Part shown: in pieces, positions 2,385 to 46,408 of the stretch
Numbering within the stretch: the stretch's first letter is position 1
How the letters are laid out: each line of letters begins with the position of its first letter
Assembly (NCBI GenBank): GCA_964370865.1
Contig: CAYJKF010000003.1
Coordinates: 86,359-150,358, forward strand
DNA length: 64,000 nucleotides
Source of the DNA: an uncultured Candidatus Saccharibacteria bacterium
GTDB taxonomy: Bacteria; Patescibacteriota; WWE3; 2-01-FULL-39-13
Direction of reading: 5' to 3'
Program-made: the position numbers and the translations under genes
Notes under the pieces: generated by a model
The model's input: the letters and a program-made list of their open reading frames with translations, nothing else
What the model was told of the DNA's origin: nothing
Databases searched by the model: none

Positions 2385-4697
2385 TTAATCATCATCATCG
2401 TCGTCATTACAATCATTCAGGTCAAAACGATCTGGCTTCTCTTCTTTTTCAAAGTCAGGACCCATATTCTTAAATAATTGACCTTCATCATCCTCAAATC
2501 TGTCTTCAACCCATGATATTACAAATGGTTGCCAATCAGTTTTCTCTGCTTTATGTATAATGTAAACTTTATCTTCAATCTCCCCATCATCACAGATTTT
2601 TTCACGTCTAAACATTTCTGATTTTGCTTTTGGCTCAGTCCCTTTTACAAAATACTCAATGCGGCCTTCTTCTTCACCATCATAAGGAACCATTCCAGAA
2701 AGTGTACCAACTCTTACATCAACTATACTTTCCGGTTTAGTAAACTCCTTATTGGGCTTATTTTTTAAGAAGTGAACAATTGATCGATTCCAAATTGGTG
2801 CTGCACCTGTAAGACCTGAAGCAAGTCTGGCATTCATTGCAGTTCCATCGTTATTACCAACCCAGACCCCAATAGCAATATCCTGAGTGTAACCAACCGT
2901 CCAGTTATCCTTTAAATCGTTTGAGGTACCGGTTTTAACAGCAACTTTGTTTTGAGGAATATTTAACTGTGAGTTTGCTCCAAAAGCAGATGACCTTGCT
3001 GAATTATCAGAAAGGATACTAGAAATAATCCATACCAAACCTTCATCTACAACTCTTATTCCTTTTACATCAAAATATCTGTCTAAAACGTCACCCTTAT
3101 AATCCTTAACTTCTAAGATAGGTGAAAGTTCTTTATACACTCCACCAGCTCCAAGCGATGCAAAACCATTTGTGAGATCGAGTAATGTAACCTCACCACC
3201 ACCAAGACTTAGTGCTAATCCATGTTTAGATGGATCGTATTTTAAGGCTTTAATTCCTAGGTTATTTGCTAAATCGACCATAGTTTGTATTCCTACCAAG
3301 TCCAGCATTTTAACCGCCGTTACATTAACGGAGTTAGCCAAGGCGTACCTTATTTGAATAGGCCCCCTAAATCCCCAACCACCATAGTTTTTGGGATCAT
3401 ATGGTTCTAGTCCAACACCACGGTCAAACTCTGTGTAGACATCATACATCAGAGTAGAAGCGGTATATCCTTTCATTAATCCTGCCAAATAGATAAAAGG
3501 TTTTAACGTCGATCCAGGCTGTCTGTGTCCATCTACTACTATATTGAATTGACCTGTACTATTATCAGCAAAGTAATCACGAGACCCAACCATCGCAAGT
3601 ATCTGTCTGGTCTGTGGATCTATAGCAACTAAGCCGGCATTTCCTACTCCAAGAGTTGAAGCTTTTTCAACTTCTTCTCGCAAAATTTGTTCATATGTTT
3701 CCTGCAACGTAAGATCCAAGCTAGTTGTTACATTTAATCCACTATTTAAATATTCTTCTCCATATCTCTCTCGTAATAAATCAAGAACATACATTACAAA
3801 ATGTGGCGCTTTTAGAGTACCTTTAATTTCGGCATAATTGAGTTCTTCTTCAACGGCTGCATTATAATCCTCTTCTGAGAGATACTGTCTATTTCCATCT
3901 CGGTCAACCCACCCTCGATCTTTCATTAGATATAGAACATATTTCTGCCGATTCTTAGCGGCTTCCGGATCTCGAAAAGGAGAGTAATAGGTTGGCCTTT
4001 GTGGCAATCCTGCAATTAATGCCGACTCAGATAAAGTTAAATCTTTGGCTGACTTATTAAATAGAGACTTAGCAGATGCCTCTACACCCCAGGTGGTACC
4101 TCCATATGGAACTTCATTTAAATACATCTGTAATATGTCATCTTTAGAATACTTGCGCTCGATTTGTAGCGCCAACACAACATCCTTAATTTTTCTTGGT
4201 AGCGTTCTATCTTGGGTTAATAAGGCGTTTTTGGCAACCTGTTGAGTAATTGTTGAACCCCCTTGTTTACTTGATGTAAAAATTGTCACGTATATACTTC
4301 TTGCAATTCCGAATGGATCAATTCCCTCATGTAAGTAAAATTCAGCATCTTCAGCCGCTAACGTCGCAGATATAAGATGAGGAGAAACATTATCTAGAGT
4401 TATTAGAGTTCGATTTTTATCATTAAATACTGAATATAAAAGCGCTCCATTTCTATCAAAAATCTTCGTAGCCTGTTCGATTGGTCTATTGGTAAGTTTA
4501 GAAGGAGAGGGGAGAGTACTAGAAAAAGCAGTAAAGACAAAAATTATCGCTAAAGCACTAAAAAGACTTCCGATAAATCCAATGCCGGAAAATACAGCTA
4601 ACCAATATAAGACCCTAGTCTGTCGGTCCTTTTTAGCTCTGGGAACTGAAATATTATTGTGGTTACCAAGCGTAACTCTATTGATTACTTTGTGCAT
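2385..4697 (-). CDS. Class A penicillin-binding protein (PBP1A-type, transglycosylase plus transpeptidase) with C-terminal poly-Asp tail
   Basis: N-terminal TM anchor. GT51 motif AEDAEFYLHEGID. Transpeptidase STLKPF (SxxK). Ends ...NDCNDDDDDD. Confidence 0.85.
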   Translation of the reverse strand: MHKVINRVTLGNHNNISVPRAKKDRQTRVLYWLAVFSGIGFIGSLFSALAIIFVFTAFSSTLPSPSKLTNRPIEQATKIFDRNGALLYSVFNDKNRTLITLDNVSPHLISATLAAEDAEFYLHEGIDPFGIARSIYVTIFTSSKQGGSTITQQVAKNALLTQDRTLPRKIKDVVLALQIERKYSKDDILQMYLNEVPYGGTTWGVEASAKSLFNKSAKDLTLSESALIAGLPQRPTYYSPFRDPEAAKNRQKYVLYLMKDRGWVDRDGNRQYLSEEDYNAAVEEELNYAEIKGTLKAPHFVMYVLDLLRERYGEEYLNSGLNVTTSLDLTLQETYEQILREEVEKASTLGVGNAGLVAIDPQTRQILAMVGSRDYFADNSTGQFNIVVDGHRQPGSTLKPFIYLAGLMKGYTASTLMYDVYTEFDRGVGLEPYDPKNYGGWGFRGPIQIRYALANSVNVTAVKMLDLVGIQTMVDLANNLGIKALKYDPSKHGLALSLGGGEVTLLDLTNGFASLGAGGVYKELSPILEVKDYKGDVLDRYFDVKGIRVVDEGLVWIISSILSDNSARSSAFGANSQLNIPQNKVAVKTGTSNDLKDNWTVGYTQDIAIGVWVGNNDGTAMNARLASGLTGAAPIWNRSIVHFLKNKPNKEFTKPESIVDVRVGTLSGMVPYDGEEEGRIEYFVKGTEPKAKSEMFRREKICDDGEIEDKVYIIHKAEKTDWQPFVISWVEDRFEDDEGQLFKNMGPDFEKEEKPDRFDLNDCNDDDDDD

Positions 4698-4788
4698 TTC
4701 TTCACAATTTTACCATACTAATTGCCCCCTTTCTTATGCTACAATAATCGGGTAAAAGGCTTAATGGGCGCGGAAATTATCCACATAT

Positions 4789-4874
4789 CCAGGGGTGGCG
4801 GAGCGGCCAATCGCACCTGACTGTAAATCAGGCGGGTTTACCCTGCGTAAGTTCGAATCTTACCCCCTGGACCA
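4789..4874 (+). tRNA. tRNA-Tyr (anticodon GTA), long variable arm, CCA encoded
   Basis: Acceptor CCAGGGG/CCCCTGG. D-stem GCGG/TCGC. Anticodon stem CCTGA/TCAGG with loop CTGTAAA. Variable-arm hairpin CGGGTTTACCC. T-arm GTAAG-TTCGAAT-CTTAC. Confidence 0.85.
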
Positions 4875-4884
4875 AGTATTGCCA

Positions 4885-4913
4885 TATTTACGTACCTCCT
4901 TTTCTGTTATAAT
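4885..4913 (+). promoter_or_regulatory. Putative sigma70-like promoter (-10 TATAAT at 4908-4913, weak -35 around 4885-4893) giving a leaderless transcript for the LCP gene
   Basis: TATAAT ends 9 nt before the ATG at 4923. No SD. Confidence 0.4.
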
Positions 4914-4922
4914 TTTTTTGTT

Positions 4923-6020
4923 ATGCCACTGCCATCAAAAAATCTGCCTGGAATTTCCAAAGTTAAATTATTAATAATAATATTTGTAGTCGCACTACTT
5001 TCTAGTGGTGGCTATTTGGGGTATCTGTATTTAAAAGGTGATTCAGTCGTAGTTGCTAACGATAGTACTGACCAAAGCGAAAATGCAGAAAATCCCCCTA
5101 TTGAAGATATTAATACCGAGAGAGATTTAGGCATAATCAATGATGAAAACTCTTTAACTTCTGGAACTGTTGAGAAAACCGCACTTCAAAAACTAAAGGA
5201 AGCCGTTAGTCCAAGTGATAAAACCAGACCATTTAATATTTTAATATTAGGAATTGATCGACGTCATGGAAATCAAACTAGTTGGAGAACCGATGTAATT
5301 CAACTTGTAACTCTGTCTTCTGATAGAAAAAAAGCAGTGGTTACGCATATTCCAAGAGATGTTTGGGTTGAAAATTATAAAATTAACGCCGTATACAACC
5401 TCCAAGGTCCCGACGCGATTAAAGACACCATAACAATGATAACTGGACAGAGACCTGACCGAATTATAAGAATCGACTTTGACGCTTTTGTATATGCAGT
5501 CGATATGGTTGGTGGAGTAAATATAGATAATCCAAATCAATTCACAGATACTGGCTATCCGGATGATAGAAATGGTAGCGACCAAGCTATCGAAATTAGT
5601 TTTCCAAAAGGTGAACAAGAGTTAAGTGGGGAGAAAGCTTTACAATATGTTAGATCAAGAAAAGGTACCAATGGAGAAGGTAGTGATTACGCTAGAGGTA
5701 GACGACAACAAGTCGTGATGAAAGCGATTCTTGCAGACTTTTTTACACCTAATAGTATAAATCCTAAAACAGCAGAAACTTTGTATCGCATTGCTACGGA
5801 AAAGATCTATACAGATTTAAATCTTGCCGATACTCAAATTCTATTTGAACTTCTTAAGAATTATAAAGATATTCAGATTAATACCCTAAGTTTGGATACA
5901 ACCAATTACTTAGAAGTTCCTGCTGACAGCAGTCCTTACGGAGGACAATGGGTATTAAGAGGAAAAGGAGATAGCTATGTTGATATCCAAAAGAAGATTA
6001 CTGAATTAATACTTCCTTAA
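4923..6020 (+). CDS. LytR-CpsA-Psr (LCP) family cell-envelope phosphotransferase
   Basis: N-terminal TM. LCP core FNILILGIDRR...RTDVIQLVTL...AVVTHIPRD. Confidence 0.8.
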   Translation: MPLPSKNLPGISKVKLLIIIFVVALLSSGGYLGYLYLKGDSVVVANDSTDQSENAENPPIEDINTERDLGIINDENSLTSGTVEKTALQKLKEAVSPSDKTRPFNILILGIDRRHGNQTSWRTDVIQLVTLSSDRKKAVVTHIPRDVWVENYKINAVYNLQGPDAIKDTITMITGQRPDRIIRIDFDAFVYAVDMVGGVNIDNPNQFTDTGYPDDRNGSDQAIEISFPKGEQELSGEKALQYVRSRKGTNGEGSDYARGRRQQVVMKAILADFFTPNSINPKTAETLYRIATEKIYTDLNLADTQILFELLKNYKDIQINTLSLDTTNYLEVPADSSPYGGQWVLRGKGDSYVDIQKKITELILP

Positions 6021-6029
6021 TTAGCTTGA

Positions 6030-6512
6030 TTATCTAAAGTTAACTGTAATTTCCACAGCATCGCCATTCTCTAGTAGTCCGGAAGAATAAGATTTCTGTA
6101 AGATTAATGAACCGGAATCTCCATATTCTGGAACGGTAAAAGTTAATTCAGCTGTAAACGGAACAAATTCTTCAGTCATCCATTCGCCATCAGCTTGTGC
6201 AATACCTTCGGCAATAATTAAGCCATCCCAATCTGTAAGTACAACTGGAAATGAACCCTCAAAAAACCATCCGCCGCGAGCGCTACCGGTTACTAACAAA
6301 GGAGAGGTAACGATTTCTCCAGCAGTTGGATAATTTAAAACGACCATATCATTTAAGACATTTTCTTCAACAGGCATTTCGGATTCATCAAATACTACTT
6401 CATCATTCTCAGGCAATGGGGTAACGGCATTCTGAGTTTTATTCATTAAAAACCAGATTGATAATATTAAGAGTCCAATAAAAAAGAGTATTTTGATGTT
6501 GGTGTTATTCAT
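6030..6512 (-). CDS. Membrane-anchored Gmad2-like immunoglobulin-like domain protein
   Basis: N-terminal TM. GSARGGWFFEGSFPVVLTDWDG...FTAELTF resembles the Gmad2/GerM-associated Ig-like domain. Confidence 0.45.
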   Translation of the reverse strand: MNNTNIKILFFIGLLILSIWFLMNKTQNAVTPLPENDEVVFDESEMPVEENVLNDMVVLNYPTAGEIVTSPLLVTGSARGGWFFEGSFPVVLTDWDGLIIAEGIAQADGEWMTEEFVPFTAELTFTVPEYGDSGSLILQKSYSSGLLENGDAVEITVNFR

Positions 6513-6578
6513 ATAAATTTAGTGTACAGATTAAGCGAAGGATAGGCAAATGTATTCTAAAAATTCAAAAATTTTCAA

Positions 6579-6935
6579 CTAGTTACAACAACCTTTGCAC
6601 TCTCCATTATCACAATAAACTTTTTCCGACGGACACAAAATCATACTCCCACGCCTCCCACTATTTTTAGCGCAATGCTGCGTAGTATTTTCGTAATTAC
6701 AATCTAAATCAGAGGTACAAGAAATTGTCGATGGCTGCTTAAATGGCACATCGGCACCTTCGTAAAAACACATGGGATATGAATACCCACATGTATAACC
6801 TGCCATTTCTAAAACTGCCACTGGTACATTATCTAGTTGAGTCTCAGTCGGGGCAAACGGAGCAATAATTAAGAAAATAAGGAAAAGTATTCCTATAACC
6901 GCGCTTACAATTAACAAGATATATGCTTTCCTCAC
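6579..6935 (-). CDS. Small membrane-anchored cysteine-rich protein (11 Cys in about 70 aa), function unknown
   Basis: N-terminal TM helix followed by Cys-rich ectodomain ...CDNGECKGCCN. Confidence 0.5.
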   Translation of the reverse strand: MRKAYILLIVSAVIGILFLIFLIIAPFAPTETQLDNVPVAVLEMAGYTCGYSYPMCFYEGADVPFKQPSTISCTSDLDCNYENTTQHCAKNSGRRGSMILCPSEKVYCDNGECKGCCN

Positions 6936-6970
6936 AGTTTAAGTGTAACACTCAAATCAGTGCTACAATG

Positions 6971-7450
6971 TTACTCTCTTGAAAGGTATTCCGGGACAAT
7001 TTTTAAATCCAGATATTTTCTTTGAGTAGGTTTTGGTAAATACTTAAAGTCTTGAATAACTTTACGACAATTTATTGCTCCACAATTACAATTCATTACC
7101 CAATTATCTTCGTCCATTGTAGTTGAATAATCCCAAGTAATTTCTTCTCCTGCATATATTTTTCTAATAGAAATTAGGCTAACTTTATTGGCACTTATTC
7201 GTAATCCTGAATTTGGATCACATGAATGATTTATATAATCATCCAAATCGCCTGAAGGACCCATATACAGCTCTTTTCCAACCTGTACATAATGATCAAT
7301 TACGTTGTTATAAGGGGAAGGTAATTCTTTATAATTATATATTTTTCCATGAAACTCTATAATGACTTGTCCTTTGCCAATCATATTATTCGAGAAGACT
7401 CCTTTCCCATTATTAGTTTTCCCAATACTTAGCGAGAATCTGTTTTGCAC
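6971..7450 (-). CDS. SET-domain protein lysine methyltransferase (minimal, 159 aa)
   Basis: GKGVF...KGQVI N-region. NHSCDPN core. GEEITWDY (ELxF/WDY). Post-SET CNCGAINC. Confidence 0.8.
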   Translation of the reverse strand: MQNRFSLSIGKTNNGKGVFSNNMIGKGQVIIEFHGKIYNYKELPSPYNNVIDHYVQVGKELYMGPSGDLDDYINHSCDPNSGLRISANKVSLISIRKIYAGEEITWDYSTTMDEDNWVMNCNCGAINCRKVIQDFKYLPKPTQRKYLDLKIVPEYLSRE

Positions 7451-7539
7451 ACGATTATTATAGCTAAGAAAATTATTAGCAGGTCCATGTAAAAAATATG
7501 TGTTGACATTGTTCTCTTATGATGTTGAGATATATGTAA

Positions 7540-10500
7540 GTGAAGAAGAATATTGTCAGGCTATTATCATTTGTTGGGTTTTTATTTATTTGTGCCAATA
7601 GCGCTGTCGCTGCTTCGACTCCAACTGTTACAAATTTCACACCACTTTCAACTTCAGTTGGAACCTTTCAAAAATTCGAAGCAAATTTTACTATTTCGCA
7701 AACATTTCCAACTGATTCACTTCTACCATATTATTTTTATGACCCTGCCGATAATTCTGCTACAGACCCAGGAAGAAATTCACCATATGGCATAGATGGA
7801 ATTTCAGTTGATGTACATTTTACTGCTCCTTCAGGAAAAACATTAGTAGTCCCTGCATTTTATTATCAAGACTATTCAAGAACAGGTTCTTATAGTTCAG
7901 GCATAACTTTAACTCCAACAAATAATTTTAACTGGAAAGTAAGATTTGCACCAAGCGAAGTAGGATTTTACGACTATTATGTAACTATTACTGATAAAAA
8001 TGGAACCACAAGATATCCAACAGCAAACAGTATGCAATTGACCGCAACTTCATCATCCTCAAAAGGATTTATTAAAGTTTCGGCACAAGACAAACGGTTT
8101 TTAGAGTTTACTAACGGTGACGCGTTTATCCCAGTCTCTAGTGGAAAACAGTGGTGGTCATGTTGCGGAAAAAGAAGTTTCGATTTCGAGAAAACCTTTA
8201 CTGATTTCGGTTTAAACGGTGTTAACTTTACAAGAATTTGGGATCAAAATGATGGATATGGTTTGACTGTTGAAGGAAAATATGATGGATACAAATATCC
8301 GGATGATTACCCTCCAATTGATACAGGTGTAAATATTGATGCAATACAAAAGGGAACTCAATTTAACCAAAGAGGAAACTATGAAGAAGATAAAATAATT
8401 GAGTCAGCAGAAAAGAATGGCGTTTATATACAACTTACATCTCACGGAGATCCATATTGGATTTGGGACGGTTCTACATATGATGAATCATGGAATAAAA
8501 CACCACAAATTTTTGGAAGCCAAAGACATTTAAGTTATTGGAAAAGAAACTTTAGATATAGAGTCGCACGTTGGGGATATTCTACAAGTGTTTTCGGGTG
8601 GGAAGCGTGGAATGAACACGGACACATTACTCCAGGAATGGATATCTATAATTTTTATTCCAAATATAGTAGTTATCAATTGCAAACAGATCCTTATAAA
8701 CATCTGAGAACCACCTCACAAGGATCACAGGCATTCAGTCCTGCATTCTGGTCGTCAGGATTTTTCGATGTAGCAAATTATCATAACTACATGATGGGTT
8801 GGTTTTCATCCGATTTAAAAAACGATGAGGCAAATTTTGTTTATAGGCAGGCTTGGTGTTTACGAGACATCACAAAACTTACTTCGGGAAGTTCTTACTG
8901 CAATGATCTAGGTTTGGGTGATGGAACAAAATGGTCTACAACCTTTGGTAACATGCCTTGGGTTTGGGGCGAAATTGACGTCGGTACAAATACTTGGAAT
9001 GAACCTAATCCACTTACAAAAACAGGTGAAGGAAGAGTTAGAATGTTGCACAATTTAGCTTGGTCCGGACTTTTCTCTCCTCTTGGTACGACACCAATAG
9101 ATTGGTATTGGGAAGGTGAAGATGTAAGTACAATTGCCAATAAACTTACTCAGAAAAAAGCGGTGTCTTCGTTTTTTAAAGATATTAAATATGATGATAA
9201 CCAAATGGTGTATACGATGAGTACTTCAGATACACCTCCAGGGTATATAGGCGAAACGGTTGACGTTACGAATTCTGCAATTCGGGTTTACGCGATGAAG
9301 AGTGCAAATAAACAATATGTTTATGGATGGATACAAAACAAAAATAATACTTGGGCCAACTCTGCTTCTACCACTTCTCCAATAAATGGAAAAGCTACTT
9401 TTAAAGGTTTGGGAACAAGCTCCTATAAGGTCGAAATATGGAATACGTATACTGGTCAAATAACTTCAAGCACAGTTATGACTCCTGTTAATGGATTGTT
9501 GGATATTAATGTCTCAAATCTTACGAATGATTTTGCTGTGAAAATGATCTCGACAAATATTACACCAACTCCTACACCTACTCCAACGCCAATTCCATCA
9601 CCAACCCCAACTCCCGTTACAAGTCCTACGCCTACACCGACACCTGCTATAACTGCAACTCCAACACCTACTGTTACTCCAAGTGCAATTGGGGATGGCG
9701 ATGTTAATGGTGACAGCACTGTAAGTACTATTGATATTACGACTCTTTTAAATAATTGGAATTCAACGATTTCAAGTAGTACTGACCAGTATCGAGATGG
9801 TAAAGTTAATGGCTTAGATTTTGCTGTTGTCGCATCTGCTTTAACAGCAGTTACACCTACACCGAGTCCTACACCAACAATTACACCAACGCCAACTCCT
9901 GTCGTTACACCAACGCCTACACCAGTTCCAACACCGACCCCGATACCTGAAGCCACTTCGGGTAGCTGGAACCAATTTGGAGGTAATGCTCAAAGAACAA
10001 ATTTTACATCTCAAACAGTTCAAACACCATGGAGGTTTAAGTGGCAATGGAATGGTTCTGATGCAAATGGTCAACCTCAATCGAATCATTTATCAGTACA
10101 AGATTTGGTACAACCCGTATCAGGAGGATCAAGAGTTTATATCGTAGCAAATAACACAGTCTATGCACTTGATAAAAATAGTACTAATAAAGTAAATGGA
10201 ACTGTCTTGTGGTCAAAGAGTGGTCTCGGCAATTTAAATTCTACTGTCGCTTATGCAAACGAATTCGTATATGTCACTTCATCAAATGGATTACAGAAAC
10301 TAGATGCATCTAATGGCTCGGTTGCGGGCACTTATAATGCAAATAGTGATTTGAAATTTGCGCCACTAATTAATGGTAACAATGTGGTTGTAGCAGCTGA
10401 TAATGGACATTTAATTGCTATTGATAAGAATTCATTAAGTAAAGTGTGGGAGTATGCTCCTACATCTTCTAGTACATCGGCAACAACAGCATCATACTCG

Positions 10501-12030
10501 GCTAGTAAAAATGTTTATGTGTATATTACTCAAGACTTAAAAGTTCATGCAGTGAATGGTACAAACGGTAGTCTCAAGTGGATTCGTAAACCAACTGTTA
10601 GAAATTACGGAGATCCAAGTACTACTAATAAATCTTTAGCTCAAGCCGAAGAAGGATGGCCAGTTATTGCAGAAAATCATGGTATTGTTTTTGTACGATA
10701 TAGATTAGATTGGCAAACACTTTGGGATGGACCAGCCGATAAAGCGACCTTCCCAGCTGACAATGCAACAGCTCGCAAATTCTTAGCTGATAATCCTGCT
10801 CAACAAGCTCTATTTGCTTTAAAACTTGATGATGGTGCTGATGCTTTCACAACACCACCAAATGCAGGAAATGGTGGCGCGGGTGATGGTGGTTACTTGC
10901 CAATGGGTCCGCAACCAATTGTACGTGTCGTGGATGGAAAAGAAGTCGCGTATATGCTCTTTAGAAATATTCAAACCTGCTCTAGGGAAAGTTGGTGTGA
11001 TGGAAGGGAAGACACCACGATGGGTGAGATGGTACTCGACAATTCTACTGTAACGGGGCTATCTGGTGGTGATGTCAGGTTCGTACAATGGAGTGATTCA
11101 AAGAATTATAATACCCCTCCAGCCGATCCTTACTACCATGATATGCAAACTGATGAAATGATGTATATCACTGGTTCAGGGGATACATTATTCCATAATC
11201 ACTGGCTTGCATCAGAAGCTTATACAATTACTGACAGAAGTTCAGGACTTGGTTTGAGTTATATTCAACCGATAAAGACTACTCATGCTCCTAATGTAAT
11301 TTGGAGACAGGTTTACTGCCCAACAAGCAATACTCAGTGTAATCCAGCGATTTATCCTGGTGGTACTGGTACGAATTATGGTCCTGCAAATTGTCCATTT
11401 AATGCATCAAGTCGATATTGCGCCAGTGGATTATATGGATATGGTGATTCTAGAGCTTATGCACCTGGATTTTATGAATATCATAATTCATATAACTCAA
11501 ATGATAATTCGAAACCATTTGTCGTTGTATCTGACGGACTTGTCCTAATAAAAACAAATGATGGTGCAGTTATTGCATTAGAAAACGGAAGTCCAACTGC
11601 ATCGATTTTTGCAGATACTATTCCTGAAAATGTGTTGGGAGCACAGACTGTTAGTGGACTTCCAGAATTTTCATACAGTGATGCCAAAGATCATATTGGT
11701 GAAAACATAGTTATAAAAGCTACTGTAGTTAGTGTAGAAAACAATATGCCAAAAGCGTATTACATTGGGTTTTCTGACAATCCTCATGAAACTTTTTTGG
11801 TTAGGGTATTTGCGAAAGATGTTTCAAAATTCGGCTATGATTTAAGTACACTTAAAGGAAAAACAATTAGGATTTCTGGAACACCAAGTTTATATTGGCC
11901 AGAAGGGAAAATCGCAGAATTGGTTGTAGATAGCCCAGAACAAATTTCAATTGTTGATGACTCTGTTGAGAATGAAAGCGGAGTTAAGAAGTTTATAAAA
12001 AATATTTTTGGAAAAAATGGAAAAAACTAG
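7540..12030 (+). CDS. Giant secreted modular protein: DUF5060-like Ig, then GH5/GH140-like clan GH-A catalytic domain, beta-sandwich, PT linker, type-I dockerin-like duplicate, PT linker, PQQ-type beta-propeller, C-terminal OB-fold
   Basis: GTG start with signal peptide MKKNIVRLLSFVGFLFICANSAVAAS. GH-A acid/base VFGWEAWNEHG and nucleophile VWGEIDVG. Dockerin segments DVNGDSTVSTIDITTLLNNW and DQYRDGKVNGLDFAVVASAL (about 9691-9843). Repeated ...YALDKNS/LIAIDKNS/VHAVNGTNGS propeller blades. OB-like ...IVIKATVVSVENN...GKTIRISGTPSLYWPEGK. Confidence 0.7.
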   Translation: MKKNIVRLLSFVGFLFICANSAVAASTPTVTNFTPLSTSVGTFQKFEANFTISQTFPTDSLLPYYFYDPADNSATDPGRNSPYGIDGISVDVHFTAPSGKTLVVPAFYYQDYSRTGSYSSGITLTPTNNFNWKVRFAPSEVGFYDYYVTITDKNGTTRYPTANSMQLTATSSSSKGFIKVSAQDKRFLEFTNGDAFIPVSSGKQWWSCCGKRSFDFEKTFTDFGLNGVNFTRIWDQNDGYGLTVEGKYDGYKYPDDYPPIDTGVNIDAIQKGTQFNQRGNYEEDKIIESAEKNGVYIQLTSHGDPYWIWDGSTYDESWNKTPQIFGSQRHLSYWKRNFRYRVARWGYSTSVFGWEAWNEHGHITPGMDIYNFYSKYSSYQLQTDPYKHLRTTSQGSQAFSPAFWSSGFFDVANYHNYMMGWFSSDLKNDEANFVYRQAWCLRDITKLTSGSSYCNDLGLGDGTKWSTTFGNMPWVWGEIDVGTNTWNEPNPLTKTGEGRVRMLHNLAWSGLFSPLGTTPIDWYWEGEDVSTIANKLTQKKAVSSFFKDIKYDDNQMVYTMSTSDTPPGYIGETVDVTNSAIRVYAMKSANKQYVYGWIQNKNNTWANSASTTSPINGKATFKGLGTSSYKVEIWNTYTGQITSSTVMTPVNGLLDINVSNLTNDFAVKMISTNITPTPTPTPTPIPSPTPTPVTSPTPTPTPAITATPTPTVTPSAIGDGDVNGDSTVSTIDITTLLNNWNSTISSSTDQYRDGKVNGLDFAVVASALTAVTPTPSPTPTITPTPTPVVTPTPTPVPTPTPIPEATSGSWNQFGGNAQRTNFTSQTVQTPWRFKWQWNGSDANGQPQSNHLSVQDLVQPVSGGSRVYIVANNTVYALDKNSTNKVNGTVLWSKSGLGNLNSTVAYANEFVYVTSSNGLQKLDASNGSVAGTYNANSDLKFAPLINGNNVVVAADNGHLIAIDKNSLSKVWEYAPTSSSTSATTASYSASKNVYVYITQDLKVHAVNGTNGSLKWIRKPTVRNYGDPSTTNKSLAQAEEGWPVIAENHGIVFVRYRLDWQTLWDGPADKATFPADNATARKFLADNPAQQALFALKLDDGADAFTTPPNAGNGGAGDGGYLPMGPQPIVRVVDGKEVAYMLFRNIQTCSRESWCDGREDTTMGEMVLDNSTVTGLSGGDVRFVQWSDSKNYNTPPADPYYHDMQTDEMMYITGSGDTLFHNHWLASEAYTITDRSSGLGLSYIQPIKTTHAPNVIWRQVYCPTSNTQCNPAIYPGGTGTNYGPANCPFNASSRYCASGLYGYGDSRAYAPGFYEYHNSYNSNDNSKPFVVVSDGLVLIKTNDGAVIALENGSPTASIFADTIPENVLGAQTVSGLPEFSYSDAKDHIGENIVIKATVVSVENNMPKAYYIGFSDNPHETFLVRVFAKDVSKFGYDLSTLKGKTIRISGTPSLYWPEGKIAELVVDSPEQISIVDDSVENESGVKKFIKNIFGKNGKN
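9556..9700 (+). repeat. Pro-Thr linker-encoding simple repeat (ACNCCN)n; a second copy lies at about 9841-9952
   Basis: Translates to [16 protein letters not shown]... The antisense strand gives a spurious GVGV ORF. Confidence 0.8.
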
Positions 12031-13699
12031 AATTATACAAAAAGCAGATTTTTATCGAATAGTAAAATTTTCAATGTCTGGTTTACTATCAATTCTTGCT
12101 GGAATCGGTATTGCAAATAGTGCTTTACTTCCTGATGCACCTATTGGAAGTTCACTTAAATTACCTGAAATTTATAATGCGACAGTAAACACTGAGTTTA
12201 GTGTTCCAGTCACTGTAAATACAAATGGAACCCCTGTCGTTGCAATAGATTTTAATTTGAATTTTCCAAAAGAAAAACTTCAGCTTATGCGAATTTCTCC
12301 ATCAGCAACCTTACCAACAACTTTAACCTTTACGCCTTCTTGGTCTCAGATTGTAAATACTGCTAATCAAACTGGAAATCTTTCATTTACTGTTCTAACT
12401 TTTGATACAACAAAATCTACGGTTACAGAGCCAATTGATTCAACAAATGATTTGGTTATAGCGAACTTAATTTTTACACCTTTAGTAGTTAGCCAAGCTG
12501 AAGTAAGTTGGCTCTATTCATATGAATTAACTACTGATAGCAATGTAATAAGTGCAGGTGAGCCCAAAGATATATTAAATAGCGTAACAAGCATGCTAGT
12601 TGTTACAAGTGATCCAACTCCAGTACCAACACCAACACCAACACCAACTCCTGTCCCAACTATATTACCTGATGATACACAAGAAATAACAAATCCAGGG
12701 TTTGAAAATACTTTAACTGGATGGCAAGTATCTGGAACATCTGTAGTTCAGACAGCTCATTCAGGAACAAATGCTGCCAAATTGACTAATACATCAGCAT
12801 ATATTTCACAAAATATCGCTTCGAAATTAAAAGAAAATCAGGCATATGTCTTTTCAGCCTACGTTAAGGTCTCAAAAGCTGGTACAAGCTGGGGTGTTCC
12901 TACTCTACGTTTAAGTAAATATAAGGATTTGGGTAGTTCTGATTTTGGTCAGGCGTTATCTGTAAACAAGGTAGACAGCAATTGGCAACAAATTAAGGTA
13001 ACGAAGACTTTCACGTCATCTGAATTATCTTCAGGGGTCTATGTTGGTATACGTAATTTTGGATTTGATGGAGAATCAATTATAGATGATTTTTCAGTAA
13101 CACAATCAGTCACACCTAGCCCAACACCTACTCCAACAGCTACACCTACGCCAACGGCTACACCAACACCAACACCAACACCTACACCAACGGCAGTGCC
13201 AACTCCAGCTACCATAACTTTAACTGGAAGTATTGTTAATCAAGATGGAGATCAATATACTTCCACAAAGAGCTGGATAGGTACAGGGGCAAATGCATCT
13301 TCTAGCTACACAGGTATTAGATTTGCTGGTGTTAAACTCCCTGCAAATGCAAAGATTCAATCTGCTTTACTAGAAGTAAAAGCGTCTACTACGGAATGGA
13401 TTTTGGTTTCAGTTTCAATAAATGGTGAGAATAGTGGAGATTCTTCAAGATTCTCAAGTAAATCGTTACCAGCATCAAGAAGTCTTACACAGGCTAATGC
13501 TGCTTATTCAAGTGACAGTCAGTGGACTAGTGGGAGTTGGAATAAACTCGATGATATAAGTTCTATTGTGCAGTCAATTGTAAATCGTCAGGATTGGAAA
13601 TCAGGAAATGCACTTAGCATAATAACTAAGGGTACTGGTACAGCTTACGGGCGAAAATCTATAAATGGTGCAAGATTGATCATAACATATACGCAATAA
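12008..13699 (+). CDS. Membrane-anchored modular protein: cohesin-like domain, PT linker, CBM4/9-like carbohydrate-binding module, PT linker, C-terminal beta-rich domain X
   Basis: Overlaps the upstream gene by 23 nt. TM at aa about 20-40. Cohesin-like strands ...FSVPVTVNTNGTPVVAIDFNLNFPKEKLQLMRISPS... CBM signature QEITNPGFENTLTGWQVSG...NFGFDGESIIDDF. Confidence 0.55.
   Translation: MEKMEKTRIIQKADFYRIVKFSMSGLLSILAGIGIANSALLPDAPIGSSLKLPEIYNATVNTEFSVPVTVNTNGTPVVAIDFNLNFPKEKLQLMRISPSATLPTTLTFTPSWSQIVNTANQTGNLSFTVLTFDTTKSTVTEPIDSTNDLVIANLIFTPLVVSQAEVSWLYSYELTTDSNVISAGEPKDILNSVTSMLVVTSDPTPVPTPTPTPTPVPTILPDDTQEITNPGFENTLTGWQVSGTSVVQTAHSGTNAAKLTNTSAYISQNIASKLKENQAYVFSAYVKVSKAGTSWGVPTLRLSKYKDLGSSDFGQALSVNKVDSNWQQIKVTKTFTSSELSSGVYVGIRNFGFDGESIIDDFSVTQSVTPSPTPTPTATPTPTATPTPTPTPTPTAVPTPATITLTGSIVNQDGDQYTSTKSWIGTGANASSSYTGIRFAGVKLPANAKIQSALLEVKASTTEWILVSVSINGENSGDSSRFSSKSLPASRSLTQANAAYSSDSQWTSGSWNKLDDISSIVQSIVNRQDWKSGNALSIITKGTGTAYGRKSINGARLIITYTQ
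12678..13105 (+). repeat. Inverted-repeat copy A (CBM module cassette); partner at 20768-21200
   Basis: Central roughly 300 nt essentially identical to the reverse complement of 20880-21120 (1 mismatch seen in about 240 nt checked). Identity decays at both edges. Confidence 0.85.
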
Positions 13700-13724
13700 C
13701 TGAAAGTCTAACTTCAATCAGGTA

Positions 13725-14987
13725 ATGAATATCTTTAAGAAATACCTAAAAAAACTAGGACCTGGCTTTATTACCGGTGCCTCAGATGATGATCCATCTG
13801 GCATTGCAACATATTCACAAACTGGGGCGTTATTTGGTTATAATCAACTTTGGACAGCCCTTTTTTCCTTTCCTTTCATGACCGTCATCCAGGAAATGTG
13901 TGGGAGAATTGGAATAGTAACAGGCAAAGGTTTAGCTGGAGTTATTCGATTACATTACTCAAAGTCAGTTTTGTATTTTGCTGTTTTTATTCTTATTCTT
14001 GCCAATACGGTTAATATAGGCTCCGACCTTGGCGCAATGGCATCCTCCGCGCAGCTCATAATACCACTTCCTTTTCCAGTTTTACTTATCTTTATCACCA
14101 TAATCTGTTTACTCCTTCAAGTTTTTGTATCGTACCACGTCTATGCTAGTATATTAAAATATTTTACGTTTTCACTTCTTGCATATGTAATTACGGTCTT
14201 TGTTCTTAAACAAGATTGGTCGTTAGCTCTGATTTCAACCGTTTTTCCAACTTTCAGTATCACGAAGCAATATCTCCTAAACATCGTTGCAATACTTGGT
14301 ACTACAATCTCACCGTATCTATTTTTCTGGCAAGCCAGCGAAGAAGTGGAGGAGGAGGTTGAGAAAGGTAAGCTAAAAAGTATGGGAGCTGGTATACCAA
14401 AATTTACCAAAAGGGATATTAAAGATCTTAGATTTGACACGATCGTAGGAATGTTTTTTTCGAATATAGTGATGTACTTCATAATTCTTACGACGGCTTC
14501 CACACTGGGACAACATGGCATAACAGACATACAAACCGCCGATCAAGCTGCACAAGCACTGCAGCCGCTAGCTGGACCATTTGCCTCATTACTTTTTACC
14601 GTTGGTATTATTGGGACAGGACTTTTAGCTGTTCCTGTCCTTGCAGGCTCTGCTTCATACGCACTTTCTGAAACTTTTGGGTGGAAAGAAGGGTTATATC
14701 GAAAATTCAAACAAGCTCATGGGTTTTATGGGATCATCACAATTGCAACACTATTAGGCCTGCTCATTAACTTCACGTCTATTCCACCATTTAAAATGCT
14801 TTACTACACAGCAGTATTAAATGGAATTTGCGCACCACCACTAATGATACTAATTTTGCTAATCTCAAATAATGGAAAAATTATGAAAGGCTACACTAAT
14901 GGAAAGTTTTCTAATGTTATGGGGTGGATTATTACAATACTAATGTCTGTCTCTGCCACTGCTCTTATCGCAACCTTTCTTTTCTGA
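13725..14987 (+). CDS. NRAMP-family divalent metal cation transporter
   Basis: GPGFITGASDDDPSGIATYSQTGALFGY (Nramp DPGN-region variant). Multi-TM. Confidence 0.7.
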   Translation: MNIFKKYLKKLGPGFITGASDDDPSGIATYSQTGALFGYNQLWTALFSFPFMTVIQEMCGRIGIVTGKGLAGVIRLHYSKSVLYFAVFILILANTVNIGSDLGAMASSAQLIIPLPFPVLLIFITIICLLLQVFVSYHVYASILKYFTFSLLAYVITVFVLKQDWSLALISTVFPTFSITKQYLLNIVAILGTTISPYLFFWQASEEVEEEVEKGKLKSMGAGIPKFTKRDIKDLRFDTIVGMFFSNIVMYFIILTTASTLGQHGITDIQTADQAAQALQPLAGPFASLLFTVGIIGTGLLAVPVLAGSASYALSETFGWKEGLYRKFKQAHGFYGIITIATLLGLLINFTSIPPFKMLYYTAVLNGICAPPLMILILLISNNGKIMKGYTNGKFSNVMGWIITILMSVSATALIATFLF

Positions 14988-19140: not shown

Positions 19141-21921
19141 TTAATTTGGGACGTGAACGGTACCACCACCATCGCTAAACCTTCTTTGTAAAGCTCGGTC
19201 ATTCAAAGTTGAGCAAACCGATAATTTACATATATCAGCTTCAACAGATGAAATCATCTGTTTAAGTCCGGAAGTAAACTTAGTTGTCACGGCATTGCCT
19301 CCGAGAGGATCAGTCCACCATACTTGAGCACCACCTGAATTTGATACACGATTTCGTCCAAAGTAAGTTGTTCTCTTTAAACCTTTAAATGGGGAGCTTG
19401 GCGAATCCCAAGCGGTATTTCCACCTCCACATTCTGCTAAACGTGGCGAATAAGTTCCTGGTATTCTTAATAATCCTTCACATTCCTCTGAGGTATATCT
19501 ATAATCTTTTTGCCAAGATCGAGTAGGATGTCGATATCCAATGTCTATTAATCTTACAGGGTCTAGTACATCCCATTGTCTACCATGCTCGGCTAGCATT
19601 TTTCCAGATGGCGTAGTAATTCTTAAATCACCCTGCCAAATTTCATACGGGTTGAAATATTTAGTAGCAGTTCCTAAACTTTCCAAACAAGCGACATCAG
19701 TCATGTTACGACCCAAAGTATCACTATATACACTATTTGGAAGTCTACTTAATAACGGGTCAGTGAGTGTACAGCTCGCTCCTGGAACTGGAACCATTTC
19801 ATAGCCATTATATGTAGCAATTAGTTTGCCATCTAAACCGCATATATCGTTAAACCGACTTTGTCCACAAAATCTTTTATAGATACCTGGATCTCCAAAA
19901 GTCATCATTCCAGTTAATAAAACGACATTTTTAGGATATAATTTGCTCGCATTTAATCCATTTACATCTACACTCATACAACTTGAGTGGAATATAACCT
20001 CGTGTAAATTATTTAAGATTGCATCACCAGAGTGAGTTCCTTGATGAAATTTATGTAAATGGGTACATACAACCCCAGTTGGACTATATACGGAGGAACC
20101 ATATGGAATATTCACTCCAACTGTTCCAGCTAATTGCGCCATCGGATGGGTTGTGTTTCCAACCAGATCGGATTCATTGTTAGCAATCTCGATTTTATGA
20201 CCCACATGGTCTTCATGTCGAACAAATACAGAATCCTGTTGATCCTGATTATAATACAAATCCATGTGTTCATTGGATATACCAAATGGTATTCCAGCTC
20301 TATCTCCGGGGGAAATTACTCCCGCTGCAGATATAACTAAAGGACTAATAACACCGTCCCCATTTTGATCTATACCAAAATGTCTTACGATATCATTCCA
20401 GTAAATATAACTTTGCGGATTTGAACCATGTTCATGACCAAAATAACATCTACCACTTCCTGTAATTGGGTTTGTAACGACTGGCGGATGCCAGGTAGGG
20501 TATTTTAGTCCATCATAAGCAACTACATAGTATTGATTATGAGCATCGACTACATTTGTACCATCGTCACATTTATCATATCGACTATTTGGTATATTTT
20601 TTCCATTTGGGCCCCAAGCCATCATTGCCATACTCTCACCTGCAACAGGCTCCATTCCTCCAATATGCGTTGGCATTGGAGTCGGTGTAGGAGTAATTAC
20701 TGGAGTTACCGTAACTACTGGAGTTGGAGTTATCATAGGTGTGGGAGTTGGAGTTGGGCTAGCAGTACCAGATTCTGTTACTAAAAAATCATCTACAACT
20801 GACTCTCCATCAAACCCAAAATTACGTATACCAAGATAAACGCCTGAAGATAATTCAGATGACGTGAAAGACTTTGTTACCTTAATTTGTTGCCAATTGC
20901 TGTCTACCTTGTTTACAGATAACGCCTGACCAAAATCAGAACTACCCAAATCCTTATATTTACTTAAACGTAGAGTAGGAACACCCCAGCTTGTACCAGC
21001 TTTTGAGACCTTAACGTAGGCTGAAAAGACATATGCCTGATTTTCTTTTAATTTCGAAGCGATATTTTGTGAAATATATGCTGATGTATTAGTCAATTTG
21101 GCAGCATTTGTTCCCGAATGAGCTGTTTGAACTACAGATGTTCCAGATACTTGCCATCCTGTTAAAGAATTTTCAAAACCTGGATTTGTTATTTCTTGTG
21201 TACCACTAGGAGTTGGTGTTGGAACGGGTGTCGGAGTAGATGTTGGAACCGGCGTTGGTGTCATAGTCGGTTCTGCCACATTGGAGGAAAACTCAACTAA
21301 TAATTTTGTTTTATCTCCTGTACCTATAAATTTTCTAGCGTAAGGGTTGCCAGTTCCTTTAAGGATAACCATGATGCTTTTTCCAGGTTCCCATGCCTCA
21401 TTATTTACAATTTGTTGGATAGCATTTTCTAATCCACCAACTTTGTACCTCTTTCCAGAAATCCATTTTTCATTTTTTGAATAGGCTAGACTTGAAGAAT
21501 ATGCACTATTATATGAACTTTCAACTCCACTATCAGAATTTTCAACGATCTTTGCTCTAGCTACAAAACTTGTTTCAATCCACTGGTTAGTAGGGGAGGT
21601 AAATTCAATTGAAGCGCCTTTAACTGAAGAACCTTTTACTACTTGAACATTATTAAACATTAAAACGGTATATGAATTATCCTTGCTTTCACCATTTCCA
21701 ATCCATGGGTTAGAGGTTGTCATATTACCAGCATCTTGATTAGATACTGCAACTGAGTTAGCTGATATTTTCTCAACACTTTGTGCAAATATTCTTGAAA
21801 AAAATGGGTTACCGGATGTTTTGAAATCGTATGCAAGAAATGCGATAGCGAGGAGCCCCCAAACAATCATTACGCCTGTCATTAATTTATCGACTTTAGG
21901 TTGTTGAGTTTTCTTTTGCAT
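19141..21921 (-). CDS. Large membrane-anchored secreted modular protein: domain X', PT linker, CBM4/9-like module (near-identical to that of 12008-13699), PT linker, roughly 500-aa His/Cys-rich C-terminal domain of unknown (possibly metal-dependent hydrolytic) function
   Basis: N-terminal TM. CBM QEITNPGFENSLTGWQVSG... C-terminal domain rich in HxH/Hxx motifs (FGHEHG, HEDHVGHK, HLHKFHQGTH). Confidence 0.6.
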   Translation of the reverse strand: MQKKTQQPKVDKLMTGVMIVWGLLAIAFLAYDFKTSGNPFFSRIFAQSVEKISANSVAVSNQDAGNMTTSNPWIGNGESKDNSYTVLMFNNVQVVKGSSVKGASIEFTSPTNQWIETSFVARAKIVENSDSGVESSYNSAYSSSLAYSKNEKWISGKRYKVGGLENAIQQIVNNEAWEPGKSIMVILKGTGNPYARKFIGTGDKTKLLVEFSSNVAEPTMTPTPVPTSTPTPVPTPTPSGTQEITNPGFENSLTGWQVSGTSVVQTAHSGTNAAKLTNTSAYISQNIASKLKENQAYVFSAYVKVSKAGTSWGVPTLRLSKYKDLGSSDFGQALSVNKVDSNWQQIKVTKSFTSSELSSGVYLGIRNFGFDGESVVDDFLVTESGTASPTPTPTPMITPTPVVTVTPVITPTPTPMPTHIGGMEPVAGESMAMMAWGPNGKNIPNSRYDKCDDGTNVVDAHNQYYVVAYDGLKYPTWHPPVVTNPITGSGRCYFGHEHGSNPQSYIYWNDIVRHFGIDQNGDGVISPLVISAAGVISPGDRAGIPFGISNEHMDLYYNQDQQDSVFVRHEDHVGHKIEIANNESDLVGNTTHPMAQLAGTVGVNIPYGSSVYSPTGVVCTHLHKFHQGTHSGDAILNNLHEVIFHSSCMSVDVNGLNASKLYPKNVVLLTGMMTFGDPGIYKRFCGQSRFNDICGLDGKLIATYNGYEMVPVPGASCTLTDPLLSRLPNSVYSDTLGRNMTDVACLESLGTATKYFNPYEIWQGDLRITTPSGKMLAEHGRQWDVLDPVRLIDIGYRHPTRSWQKDYRYTSEECEGLLRIPGTYSPRLAECGGGNTAWDSPSSPFKGLKRTTYFGRNRVSNSGGAQVWWTDPLGGNAVTTKFTSGLKQMISSVEADICKLSVCSTLNDRALQRRFSDGGGTVHVPN
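20768..21200 (-). repeat. Inverted-repeat copy B (CBM module cassette); partner at 12678-13105
   Basis: See copy A. Confidence 0.85.
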
Positions 21922-44824: not shown

Positions 44825-46408
44825 GTGTACAAAAACATTTCTTACACAACCATCGCATTAATCCTCGTGTTCGGGTCTGCATTTGTTTTCTTTAGTAAAG
44901 TTTCAGCACAATCAACACCACCAGGATATGGAATTATTGGTGACAGTAACTCAGATGAATATCGTGCAGACGATAATAGAGGAGGAACATATGCAGCAAC
45001 CACATTAAATTTTGTTGAACTTTTAGTTAGAAATGGCAACCTAAACTTTGGATCATGGGGAACATGGGGAGAACCAAGAAGAACAGGCTATAAATATAAT
45101 TGGAGTCGAAGCGCAGCAAGACTAAGGGACATGATAACCACTGGTCAACACACAGGCTTAGCCCAACAAATACAAAATGGAGAAGTTAAACATGTGTTTA
45201 TATCAATCGGTACTAATGACTTTCACATTTGGAACAACACATACAATGAGATATATAACGGTACACTATCAGATGCTCAAGTACAAACAAAAGTAAATCA
45301 AATGATTGCTGATATAACACTAGCAGTAGATACCGTTAAAAATGCTGGTGCAGAGTCAATTGTTGTATCAAATATAAGTGACCCAGGATTACATCCTATG
45401 TTTATAAGCGCATTTCCAGTAGCTTCAGGAAGGGAGAGAGTTAGCGCTGCAATTAATCAATACAACGCAGCTGTACTGAATTTAGCGACAACAAAAAACA
45501 TTGGATTCTTTGACCAACACGCGTGGGGAGTTTCATTATTGAACAGAGTTGATTCTAATGGATTTTTAAACGTAGGGGGAGAACTAATTAACACAACGGT
45601 TATGAATAATGAGCCTCACCATTTTCAACTAGGAGATTCAGTAGGGCACATGGGAACGGTTGCTAATGGTCTAGTTGCAAACGAATGGTTTATTGCTCCC
45701 CTTAATCAGAAATATGGATTAAACTTAGTTCCCTTTACCGAGCAAGAAATCATAACCAATGCAGGTATTATTACAAATAATCCAACACCTACACCAACTG
45801 CTACTCCAACAGCAACGCCATCGGTTACTCCAAGCCCAACTCCTACCCCAACAGTAACACCAAGTCCGACACCTACCGCAACTCCAACACCATCTGTCAC
45901 ACCAAGTCCTATGCCAACTGCGACACCAACGCCAACTCCTACTCCAACATCACAAGTGGGGTGGAATTTTCCTCCTAGATCATATTCAATAGTTACAGGC
46001 AAGAGATTATCCGGAAATCTATCAAGCGTAACTTCAAATAACAACAGCTATCTAGTAGTTAAAAGTCAAACCTCTGGAACAACTAGATTCGCCAGAACAG
46101 AATATACATTTAGTAATTTCACAGGCGTAACTTCTGCGTCAAAATTAACATTTACAATCAACGCATTTTCAAATGTTAGTGCGACAAATGGAAAAATAAT
46201 GATATTAAAAGCTAGTACAGGTCAGTGGGAAACACTATCTACTTTTACCCTAGGTACAACTGAAGGTGTATATACAGGAGTGGTAAATGCAGACTTAGCA
46301 ACCTATGCAAATACCAGTGGAGTAATAAAACTAAGATTAGAAACAAGCAAAGGAAAGACAACAACAACCACGTCGACAGACTTCGTTCAACTTACCGTAA
46401 CTCCATAA
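44825..46408 (+). CDS. Secreted SGNH/GDSL-type hydrolase, PT linker, C-terminal beta-sandwich domain
   Basis: Signal peptide. [11 protein letters not shown] block I. Linker [13 protein letters not shown]... Confidence 0.6.
45781..45955 (+). repeat. Pro-Thr linker-encoding simple repeat
   Basis: Translates to [23 protein letters not shown]... Confidence 0.8.

Follow-up and report, generated by a model that had tools for sequence, protein, structure and literature searches.

Overlapping genes of a Patescibacterium encode a dockerin-bearing, glycoside-hydrolase-like protein and a probable cohesin partner with a predicted membrane anchor

Two overlapping genes were analyzed on contig CAYJKF010000003.1 (assembly GCA_964370865.1, an uncultured Candidatus Saccharibacteria bacterium of the WWE3 lineage), in a stretch of 64,000 nucleotides (positions 86,359 to 150,358) that is referred to below as the window and numbered from its first letter. 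The first gene (7540–12030, 1496 aa) encodes P1, which consists of a signal peptide, a DUF5060 domain, a catalytic region resembling clan GH-A glycoside hydrolases (GH), a linker, a dockerin, a second linker, a β-propeller region, and a small C-terminal domain. The second gene (12008–13699, 563 aa) encodes P2, with an N-terminal anchor, one cohesin, and two modules of the carbohydrate-binding module (CBM) type. Both open reading frames (ORFs) and all of their features described here lie on the forward strand, and an initial annotation of this DNA had delimited the two ORFs in the same way. On the evidence of sequence comparison, P1 and P2 are probably a cognate cohesin-dockerin pair, forming a conserved two-gene module of Patescibacteria that tethers one enzyme to the cell surface. 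P1 would be exported through Sec, and the dockerin in its interior, with a flexible Pro/Thr linker on either side, would insert into the single cohesin of P2, which an N-terminal hydrophobic helix would keep in the cytoplasmic membrane. Such a complex would keep a single large glycoside hydrolase, composed of a clan GH-A barrel and a BamB-like propeller, at the cell surface and also on polysaccharide, because P2 carries a CBM4_9 module and a DNRLRE/CBM96-like jelly-roll in addition to its cohesin. This would be the mode of a monovalent anchoring scaffoldin, unlike that of a multi-enzyme cellulosome. The genomes of the Patescibacteria, or Candidate Phyla Radiation (CPR), are tiny, few members have been cultured, and the construction of their cell surface is poorly understood; the P1-P2 pair suggests a way in which such a cell could secrete a large glycan-degrading enzyme and yet retain it both at the cell surface and on the substrate.

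The dockerin of P1 is recognized directly. The segment GDVNGDSTVSTIDITTLLNNW...DQYRDGKVNGLDFAVVASAL lies between Pro/Thr linkers at aa 674–704 (9559–9651) and aa 771–802 (9850–9945) and matches Pfam Dockerin_1 (PF00404) with 32.8 bits against a cut-off of 22.9 (E = 8e-8). The initial annotation had placed a type-I dockerin between two such linkers and had named this profile as a check, and both the placement and the significant profile match hold. The module itself (aa 720–768, 9697–9843; envelope of a local hidden Markov model (HMM), 9685–9849) comprises two F-hand repeats, DVNGDSTVSTID... and DQYRDGKVNGLD..., and these comparisons point to a genuine dockerin on a secreted, glycoside-hydrolase-like protein. 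Of 15 listed PDB matches to the segment, 13 are dockerin chains or complexes, all of them weak (best 2yik, E = 0.009), and a profile of the P1 family reaches the PDB dockerins 2y3n_B, 1daq, 2mte, and 2vn5_B. Nearly all orthologs of 38–59% identity keep the dockerin at the same internal site, with the subtype signature GD(V/I)NxDGxV...D...L..W ... DQYxDxx(V/I)NSxD(F/Y)AV. A canonical dockerin has a 12-residue Ca2+ loop in each F-hand, with Asp or Asn at positions 1, 3, 5, 9, and 12, followed by a helix. Loop 1 of P1 (DVNGDSTVSTID) is canonical at positions 1, 3, 5, and 12 and has Ser at positions 6 and 9, whereas loop 2 (DQYRDGKVNGLD) has a Tyr in place of Asp or Asn at Ca-ligand position 3, and this DQY is conserved in orthologs. 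The earlier description of repeats that match the consensus almost position for position was therefore overstated, given the Tyr in loop 2 and the clear asymmetry of the two repeats.

The N-terminal domain of P2 (aa about 42–205, 12131–12622) is, on the combined indications of transitive homology, profile comparison, and modeled fold, a divergent cohesin. A phmmer search of the domain against the PDB returned nothing relevant, and a word-index protein search found no homologs, so that an exhaustive HMMER search was needed. Among 1.84 billion representative proteins this search gave 105 homologs, and in almost all of them the domain lies at residues ~40–220, immediately after an N-terminal hydrophobic segment. 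In a Pfam scan of P2 and these 105 proteins, 61 of the 106 matched Cohesin, with a best E-value of 4.6e-36, and the ortholog of P2 at locus L004 has a weak precomputed match to the same family. With a profile of 31 domain sequences, 15 of 16 PDB matches were cohesins (2y3n_A the best, E = 2e-4). An AlphaFold2 model of the domain, built with 28 sequences, has a mean pLDDT of 95.1 and a pTM of 0.88, and every one of its top 44 Foldseek matches in the PDB is a cohesin (types I, II, and III are represented), with E-values down to 6e-10 and target-normalized TM values of 0.43–0.79 at sequence identities of only 6–19%. The cohesin-like first domain proposed in the initial annotation is thus borne out by its family, by its profile, and by a modeled fold that is the cohesin β-sandwich and not some other arrangement.

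The cohesin is preceded by a hydrophobic segment at aa 18–40 (12059–12127; Kyte-Doolittle maximum of 1.81 at aa 18), which is read as a signal-anchor or transmembrane helix. P2 contains no second hydrophobic segment, and an equivalent N-terminal segment is present in its orthologs. Of the membrane anchoring claimed earlier, the single N-terminal segment is accordingly found in the protein; that it retains P2 in the membrane is what we infer from it.

The two genes overlap. The stop codon of P1 occupies 12028–12030, and the overlap amounts to 23 nt if P2 starts at TTG 12008, the figure given before, or 14 nt if it starts at ATG 12017. No terminator-like site was found in a search of 7300–14000, and in orthologous pairs the genes abut or share an overlap of 4–10 nt; P1 and P2 appear to form an operon. 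To survey the pairing more widely, loci were taken from fetches around individual P1 homologs and from a scan in which each GTDB species was represented by a single genome (44 loci). Where the internal dockerin of the P1-like enzyme is of the DQ[YNH] type, a cohesin gene adjoins in 14 of 14 non-redundant loci. Dockerins of other types (Cys-flanked, "DY..W", or, in Chloroflexi, C-terminal) mark 17 loci, and in the flanks of these no cohesin gene was found (Fisher p = 4e-9, not corrected for phylogeny). In a prospective test, four more distant orthologs with this type of dockerin all proved to have an adjacent cohesin gene, downstream in two and upstream in two. The total is 18 of 18 non-redundant loci for a subtype in which loop 2 reads DQY, DQN, DQH, or DQF, and once DIF, and P2 orthologs stand directly downstream of P1 orthologs in most of them. 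These counts support an adjacency of P1 and P2 that is conserved and tracks the dockerin subtype, and the resulting rule (18/18 versus 0/17) predicts which cohesin pairs with which dockerin. Fusions also occur: P0015 and P0017 join a P2-type C-terminal domain to a P1-like enzyme, and P0046 combines a cohesin, the C-terminal domain, and DUF5060-GH in one protein. A cognate pair is the best explanation because there is one dockerin and one cohesin in the window, the pairs are kept, adjacency follows subtype, the prospective loci agree, and fusions exist.

Variants of the arrangement are seen at several loci. At L054 (3215–4753) and L056 (3226–4752) a small ORF of 78–86 aa separates the enzyme gene from a cohesin gene upstream of it, and in the cohesin proteins Laminin_G_3, a lectin domain of the concanavalin-like kind, takes the place of CBM4_9 and the DNRLRE-like domain. 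At L016 (10217–15403, encoding P0046) and L043 (10099–16410), both from Patescibacteria, the cohesin is the N-terminal part of a larger protein with a DNRLRE-like domain and DUF5060-GH, and dockerin-bearing P1-like genes stand directly upstream of it, two in L016 and one in L043. By its domain content, this is a variant in which the predicted anchor is itself an enzyme.

Several points weigh against reading P1 and P2 as a dedicated pair. P2 itself gives no match to Pfam Cohesin (PF00963) at E ≤ 1, and its aa 40–205 match no Pfam family at all, so that the HMM check suggested in the initial annotation succeeds for the 61 family members and fails for P2. Binding of Ca2+, which docking would presumably need, is uncertain at loop 2 of the dockerin, where the conserved Tyr stands at position 3 and the canonical Asp or Asn is missing. 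Instead of an anchor, the N-terminal segment of P2 may be a signal peptide that is removed by cleavage after ANS. Within the cohesin family, 32 of the 106 scanned proteins carry a Dockerin_1 of their own, and because this is about a third of them, other partners exist in the family. More cohesins and dockerins may be encoded elsewhere in the genome, beyond the 64 kb, and the co-occurrence of adjacent genes in related genomes partly reflects shared ancestry.

These points bear most on the alternative that the two modules are real and are not mutual partners. The dockerin of P1 would then dock with a cohesin encoded elsewhere, P2 would recruit other proteins, and the adjacency would reflect only the co-regulation of surface glycan-processing genes. 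The family members with their own dockerin indicate that other pairings are formed, the neighbor at locus L053 combines a cohesin with a different, Cys-containing dockerin, and the genome was viewed through 64 kb. We nevertheless consider this alternative unlikely, since an adjacency of 18/18 for this dockerin subtype against 0/17 for the others, a single module of each kind in the window, the overlap of the genes, and the fusions that join P2 domains with P1-type enzymes all speak for a mutual pair. A different possibility is that no interaction takes place: the dockerin-like segment would be a spacer, Ca2+-binding or structural, or else a module that binds glycans, and the cohesin-like domain would be a generic β-sandwich. 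To our knowledge, no partner has been demonstrated for many of the dockerin and cohesin modules outside cellulosomes, and the departure of loop 2 from the Ca-ligand consensus fits such a role. The subtype-specific co-occurrence with an adjacent cohesin, however, is hard to explain without a functional link, and the fold and profile matches are specific to cohesins and not to generic sandwiches, which makes an absence of interaction very improbable.

The initial annotation had regarded the pair as the minimal architecture of a cellulosome. What defines a cellulosome is the integration of several enzymes by a scaffoldin that bears several cohesins. The window was searched with Pfam on ten other large proteins, with two local HMMs (filters off), and with a motif scan, and it holds exactly one dockerin, that of P1, and one cohesin, that of P2; P2 and all of its orthologs have one cohesin each. 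With these single modules P1-P2 does not look like a cellulosome proper, and the minimal cellulosome is not supported as a multi-enzyme assembly. Elements of a cellulosome-like kind are present in the form of CBMs and a cohesin on P2 and its predicted N-terminal attachment to the cell. Three other proteins with Pro/Thr linkers had been proposed as further partners, namely a GH113 enzyme (26732–28624), a GDSL hydrolase (44825–46408), and a 926-aa protein (19141–21921); they were rejected, since no dockerin was found in any of them by Pfam, the local HMMs, or the motif scan. That the pair is the core of a true multi-enzyme cellulosome, with P2 as one of several scaffoldins and many dockerin enzymes including those with Pro/Thr linkers in the window, is very improbable: the component types are there (a dockerin on an enzyme, a cohesin and CBM on an anchored protein) and secreted glycan-active proteins are encoded nearby, including the GH113 enzyme and the GDSL hydrolase, but P2 and the orthologous P2 proteins have a single cohesin and the same searches yielded no second dockerin or cohesin in 64 kb.

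The enzyme that the pair would tether begins with a Sec-type signal peptide (aa 1–25, 7540–7614; MKKNIVRLLSFVGFLFICANSAVA/AS, with predicted cleavage at ...SAVA/AS), which is the sole hydrophobic segment of P1. It is followed by a DUF5060 Ig-like domain (aa 86–149, 7795–7986; Pfam PF16586, 30.4 bits against a cut-off of 27.2). This domain overlaps a region homologous to PDB 9gmj (aa 82–405 and 502–555, 7783–9204), which holds the GH-A-like catalytic region and is matched with an E-value of 1.7e-27 by P1 alone and 1e-58 by the family profile. The entries 9gmj/9gpc ("DUF5060 domain-containing protein," 568 aa) are the closest solved relatives of the DUF5060 and catalytic regions of P1 and include a WNE acid/base motif; counterparts of the dockerin, propeller, and C-terminal parts of P1 are absent from 9gmj. 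The candidate acid/base pair N358-E359 (8611–8616) and the candidate nucleophile E478 (8971–8973) are invariant across 20 orthologs, in keeping with the NEH and GEID motifs singled out before. No Pfam family covers the catalytic region of P1. The P1 homolog P0064 carries PF00150, and the GH5 mannanase 3ziz is weakly matched by the P1 family profile (E = 5e-5). From these similarities the region looks clan GH-A-like, with a predicted barrel. A GH140-type architecture had been assigned to P1 and is unsupported, because matches to DUF4038 and Collagen_bind_2 are absent at E ≤ 1 (for the catalytic region alone, at E ≤ 10); neither family is listed for any P1 homolog, and the region matches instead 9gmj and, weakly, a GH5 mannanase. 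Because of the 3ziz match, the naming of the distant homolog P0082 as a mannanase, and the neighboring GH113 gene, a β-mannan-type substrate may be guessed at with low confidence, as may another glycan, possibly one on a host cell.

Downstream of the dockerin, P1 contains the core of a BamB/PQQ-like β-propeller (aa 871–1046, 10150–10677; PQQ_2, E = 4.7e-17), with PDB matches to BamB and to designed propellers, and the conserved propeller region extends to about aa 1380. Both the DUF5060 domain and the PQQ propeller, which had been named in the initial annotation, are therefore found at significant scores. The small conserved C-terminal domain (about aa 1385–1475, 11692–11964) is possibly an OB-fold. 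Its best match is a sub-threshold one to tRNA_anti_2 (E = 0.069, 13.8 bits against a cut-off of 27), and comparison with the PDB gave no convincing match; of the OB-fold proposed earlier, the conserved domain stands and the fold name finds only this sub-threshold match. The initial annotation knew of no description of the combination of domains in P1. The combination of DUF5060, a GH region, and a PQQ propeller is shared by at least 38 other database proteins, from Patescibacteria and Chloroflexi, and relatives that match P1 over its full length are found in both groups, so that it is not unique.

In P2 the cohesin is followed by a CBM4_9 module (aa 227–338, 12686–13021; Pfam CBM_4_9, E = 2.3e-8), as had been recognized before, and by a C-terminal jelly-roll (aa 401–563, 13208–13696). 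Searches of the C-terminal domain against Pfam, NCBIfam, and PDB sequences were empty or gave spurious matches (e.g. "Pizza" designed proteins). Its model, with a pLDDT of 97.4, is structurally similar to DNRLRE/CBM96-type CBMs such as the chondroitin-sulfate-binding 8wab and the alginate-binding 7vbo, with no detectable sequence similarity to them. Taken module by module, these assignments make P2 a protein composed of an anchor, a cohesin, a CBM4_9, and a CBM-like jelly-roll. A 467-bp stretch of P2 that encodes its CBM4_9 (12676–13142, forward strand) has a counterpart of 94.6% DNA identity in the gene at 19141–21921 (20736–21202, inverted, on the opposite strand). Such identity in a window of ~36% G+C points to a recent intragenomic duplication of the module or to gene conversion.

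The protein encoded by the latter gene (19141–21921, reverse strand, 926 aa) has an N-terminal hydrophobic segment, followed by a P2-like DNRLRE-like domain (aa ~51–212), the near-identical CBM4_9, and a His/Cys-rich C-terminal region of ~500 aa (HEHGSNP, HKFHQGTHSGD) without a Pfam match. Neither a dockerin nor a cohesin was found in it, and it may be a surface enzyme. The GH113 enzyme (26732–28624, reverse strand; E = 5e-56), the GDSL hydrolase (44825–46408, forward strand), which has a long Pro/Thr linker, and an Exo_endo_phos protein without a dockerin (29218–31143, reverse strand) each have an N-terminal hydrophobic segment and a C-terminal domain without a family assignment, and are probably secreted or membrane-anchored. 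Housekeeping genes are also encoded in the window, among them PheT, a class-A penicillin-binding protein (PBP), and three tRNAs. Just upstream of P1, an ORF of 159 aa (6971–7450, reverse strand) has the look of a SET domain as judged by its sequence motif (...NHSCDPN...), and a Pfam SET-domain gene lies near the P1 ortholog at L003 (940–1479); a SET domain is notable in a small-genome bacterium.

An identical copy of P1 is present in ENA (P0001), and the other P1 orthologs are 38–59% identical. The nearest genome is the metagenome-assembled genome JAUPVU01 of a "Patescibacteria group bacterium" (87% identity), and further relatives carry the labels Woesebacteria or Roizmanbacteria (CP065004.1, 1.45 Mb). 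In GCA_964523665 (L006) the P1-P2 pair also neighbors genes for PBP1, a LytR-like protein, and a DUF2298 membrane protein. The counterparts in the window lie at 2385–6020 (PBP1/LytR-like genes, upstream of P1) and 46423–48369, and the neighborhood is partly syntenic because these genes are common to both. In CP065004.1 (L007, Candidatus Roizmanbacteria) the P1 ortholog is split into two overlapping genes, one for the DUF5060 part (3967–5028) and one for the rest (5001–8714), with the cohesin gene still downstream. A frameshift, a pseudogene, or an error of assembly may lie behind the split.

The anchored-cohesin subfamily to which P2 belongs comprises 105 clusters at 50% identity (P0083–P0187). 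Names were obtained for 3 of 20 clusters, from Roizmanbacteria, WWE3, and "Patescibacteria group," and all of these are labeled "hypothetical protein," as are P2 itself, its ortholog with 83% identity, and the Roizmanbacteria ortholog. Divergent cohesins of this kind are thus missed by routine annotation, and because they are annotated as hypothetical proteins, cohesin-dockerin counts outside the Firmicutes are probably too low. Some members combine an anchor, a cohesin, and a dockerin on one polypeptide, for example P0110 (candidate division WWE3), P0139, and the protein at L053 9718–10632; such proteins could, in principle, allow chains or adaptor-type assemblies on the cell surface. A broader proposal, which we offer tentatively and with the balance against it, is that this large and so far unannotated subfamily represents a lineage-wide, subtype-coded cohesin-dockerin surface assembly system of ultra-small, probably episymbiotic bacteria, of which the P1-P2 operon would be the simplest cognate pair. 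If this were true, hydrolases and lectin-like modules would be tied to the membrane by the system, possibly as a means of attachment to the glycans of host cells or of feeding on them. Existing annotations place dockerin and cohesin domains on some proteins of Patescibacteria (e.g. P0046 and P0058), and the one relevant mention found in the literature concerns an essential protein of a Saccharibacterium with a dockerin domain (PMC10633639). In the literature on Patescibacteria, CPR, Roizmanbacteria, and Microgenomates, with incomplete coverage, neither this cohesin subfamily nor the subtype rule was found described, nor was a conserved cognate pair. Because the cohesin-dockerin mechanism is well known, P1-P2 extends a known system and introduces no new principle.

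The nearest functional analogy would be an anchor of the OlpA/OlpC type or a non-cellulosomal pair of the Clostridium perfringens type. OlpA and OlpC of Clostridium (Acetivibrio) thermocellum are single-cohesin anchors to which individual enzymes with a type-I dockerin bind directly at the cell surface, and P1-P2 is likewise proposed to use a monovalent cohesin on a cell-anchored protein to tether one dockerin enzyme. The cohesin of the OlpC cohesin-Doc435 complex (PDB 4dh2) ranks 10th among the structural matches of P2 (E = 4e-8). OlpA and OlpC are anchored by S-layer homology (SLH) repeats, whereas P2 is predicted to be anchored by an N-terminal membrane helix, and P2 carries two CBM-type modules, unlike these anchors. 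The dockerin of P1 is internal, between the catalytic region and the propeller, in contrast to the terminal dockerin of the OlpA/OlpC enzymes, and the enzyme and anchor genes overlap in an apparent operon, in a Patescibacterium host. Canonical cellulosomes, with CipA/ScaA scaffoldins that carry multiple cohesins and a CBM3 and serve tens of dockerin enzymes, have several module types in common with P1-P2: an F-hand dockerin, a jelly-roll cohesin, a CBM on the cohesin protein, and Pro/Thr linkers. In contrast to them, P1-P2 has one cohesin and one dockerin and no multi-enzyme integration, and P2 has CBM4_9 and a DNRLRE-like domain where they have CBM3. The toxin complexes of C. perfringens (GH84C cohesin and μ-toxin dockerin; PDB 2ozn, 2jnk, 2jh2, 2vo8, and 2w1n) are likewise an instance of pairing outside plant cell-wall cellulosomes that links glycoside hydrolases, and C. 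perfringens entries appear among both the dockerin matches of P1 and the cohesin fold matches of P2. There, both modules are on secreted enzymes and the connection is from enzyme to enzyme, whereas here one partner is an apparent non-catalytic membrane anchor with CBMs. Five features thus set P1-P2 apart from the OlpA/OlpC and C. perfringens systems: the predicted membrane-helix anchor, the CBMs on that anchor, the internal dockerin with its variant loop, the overlapping genes, and the host lineage.

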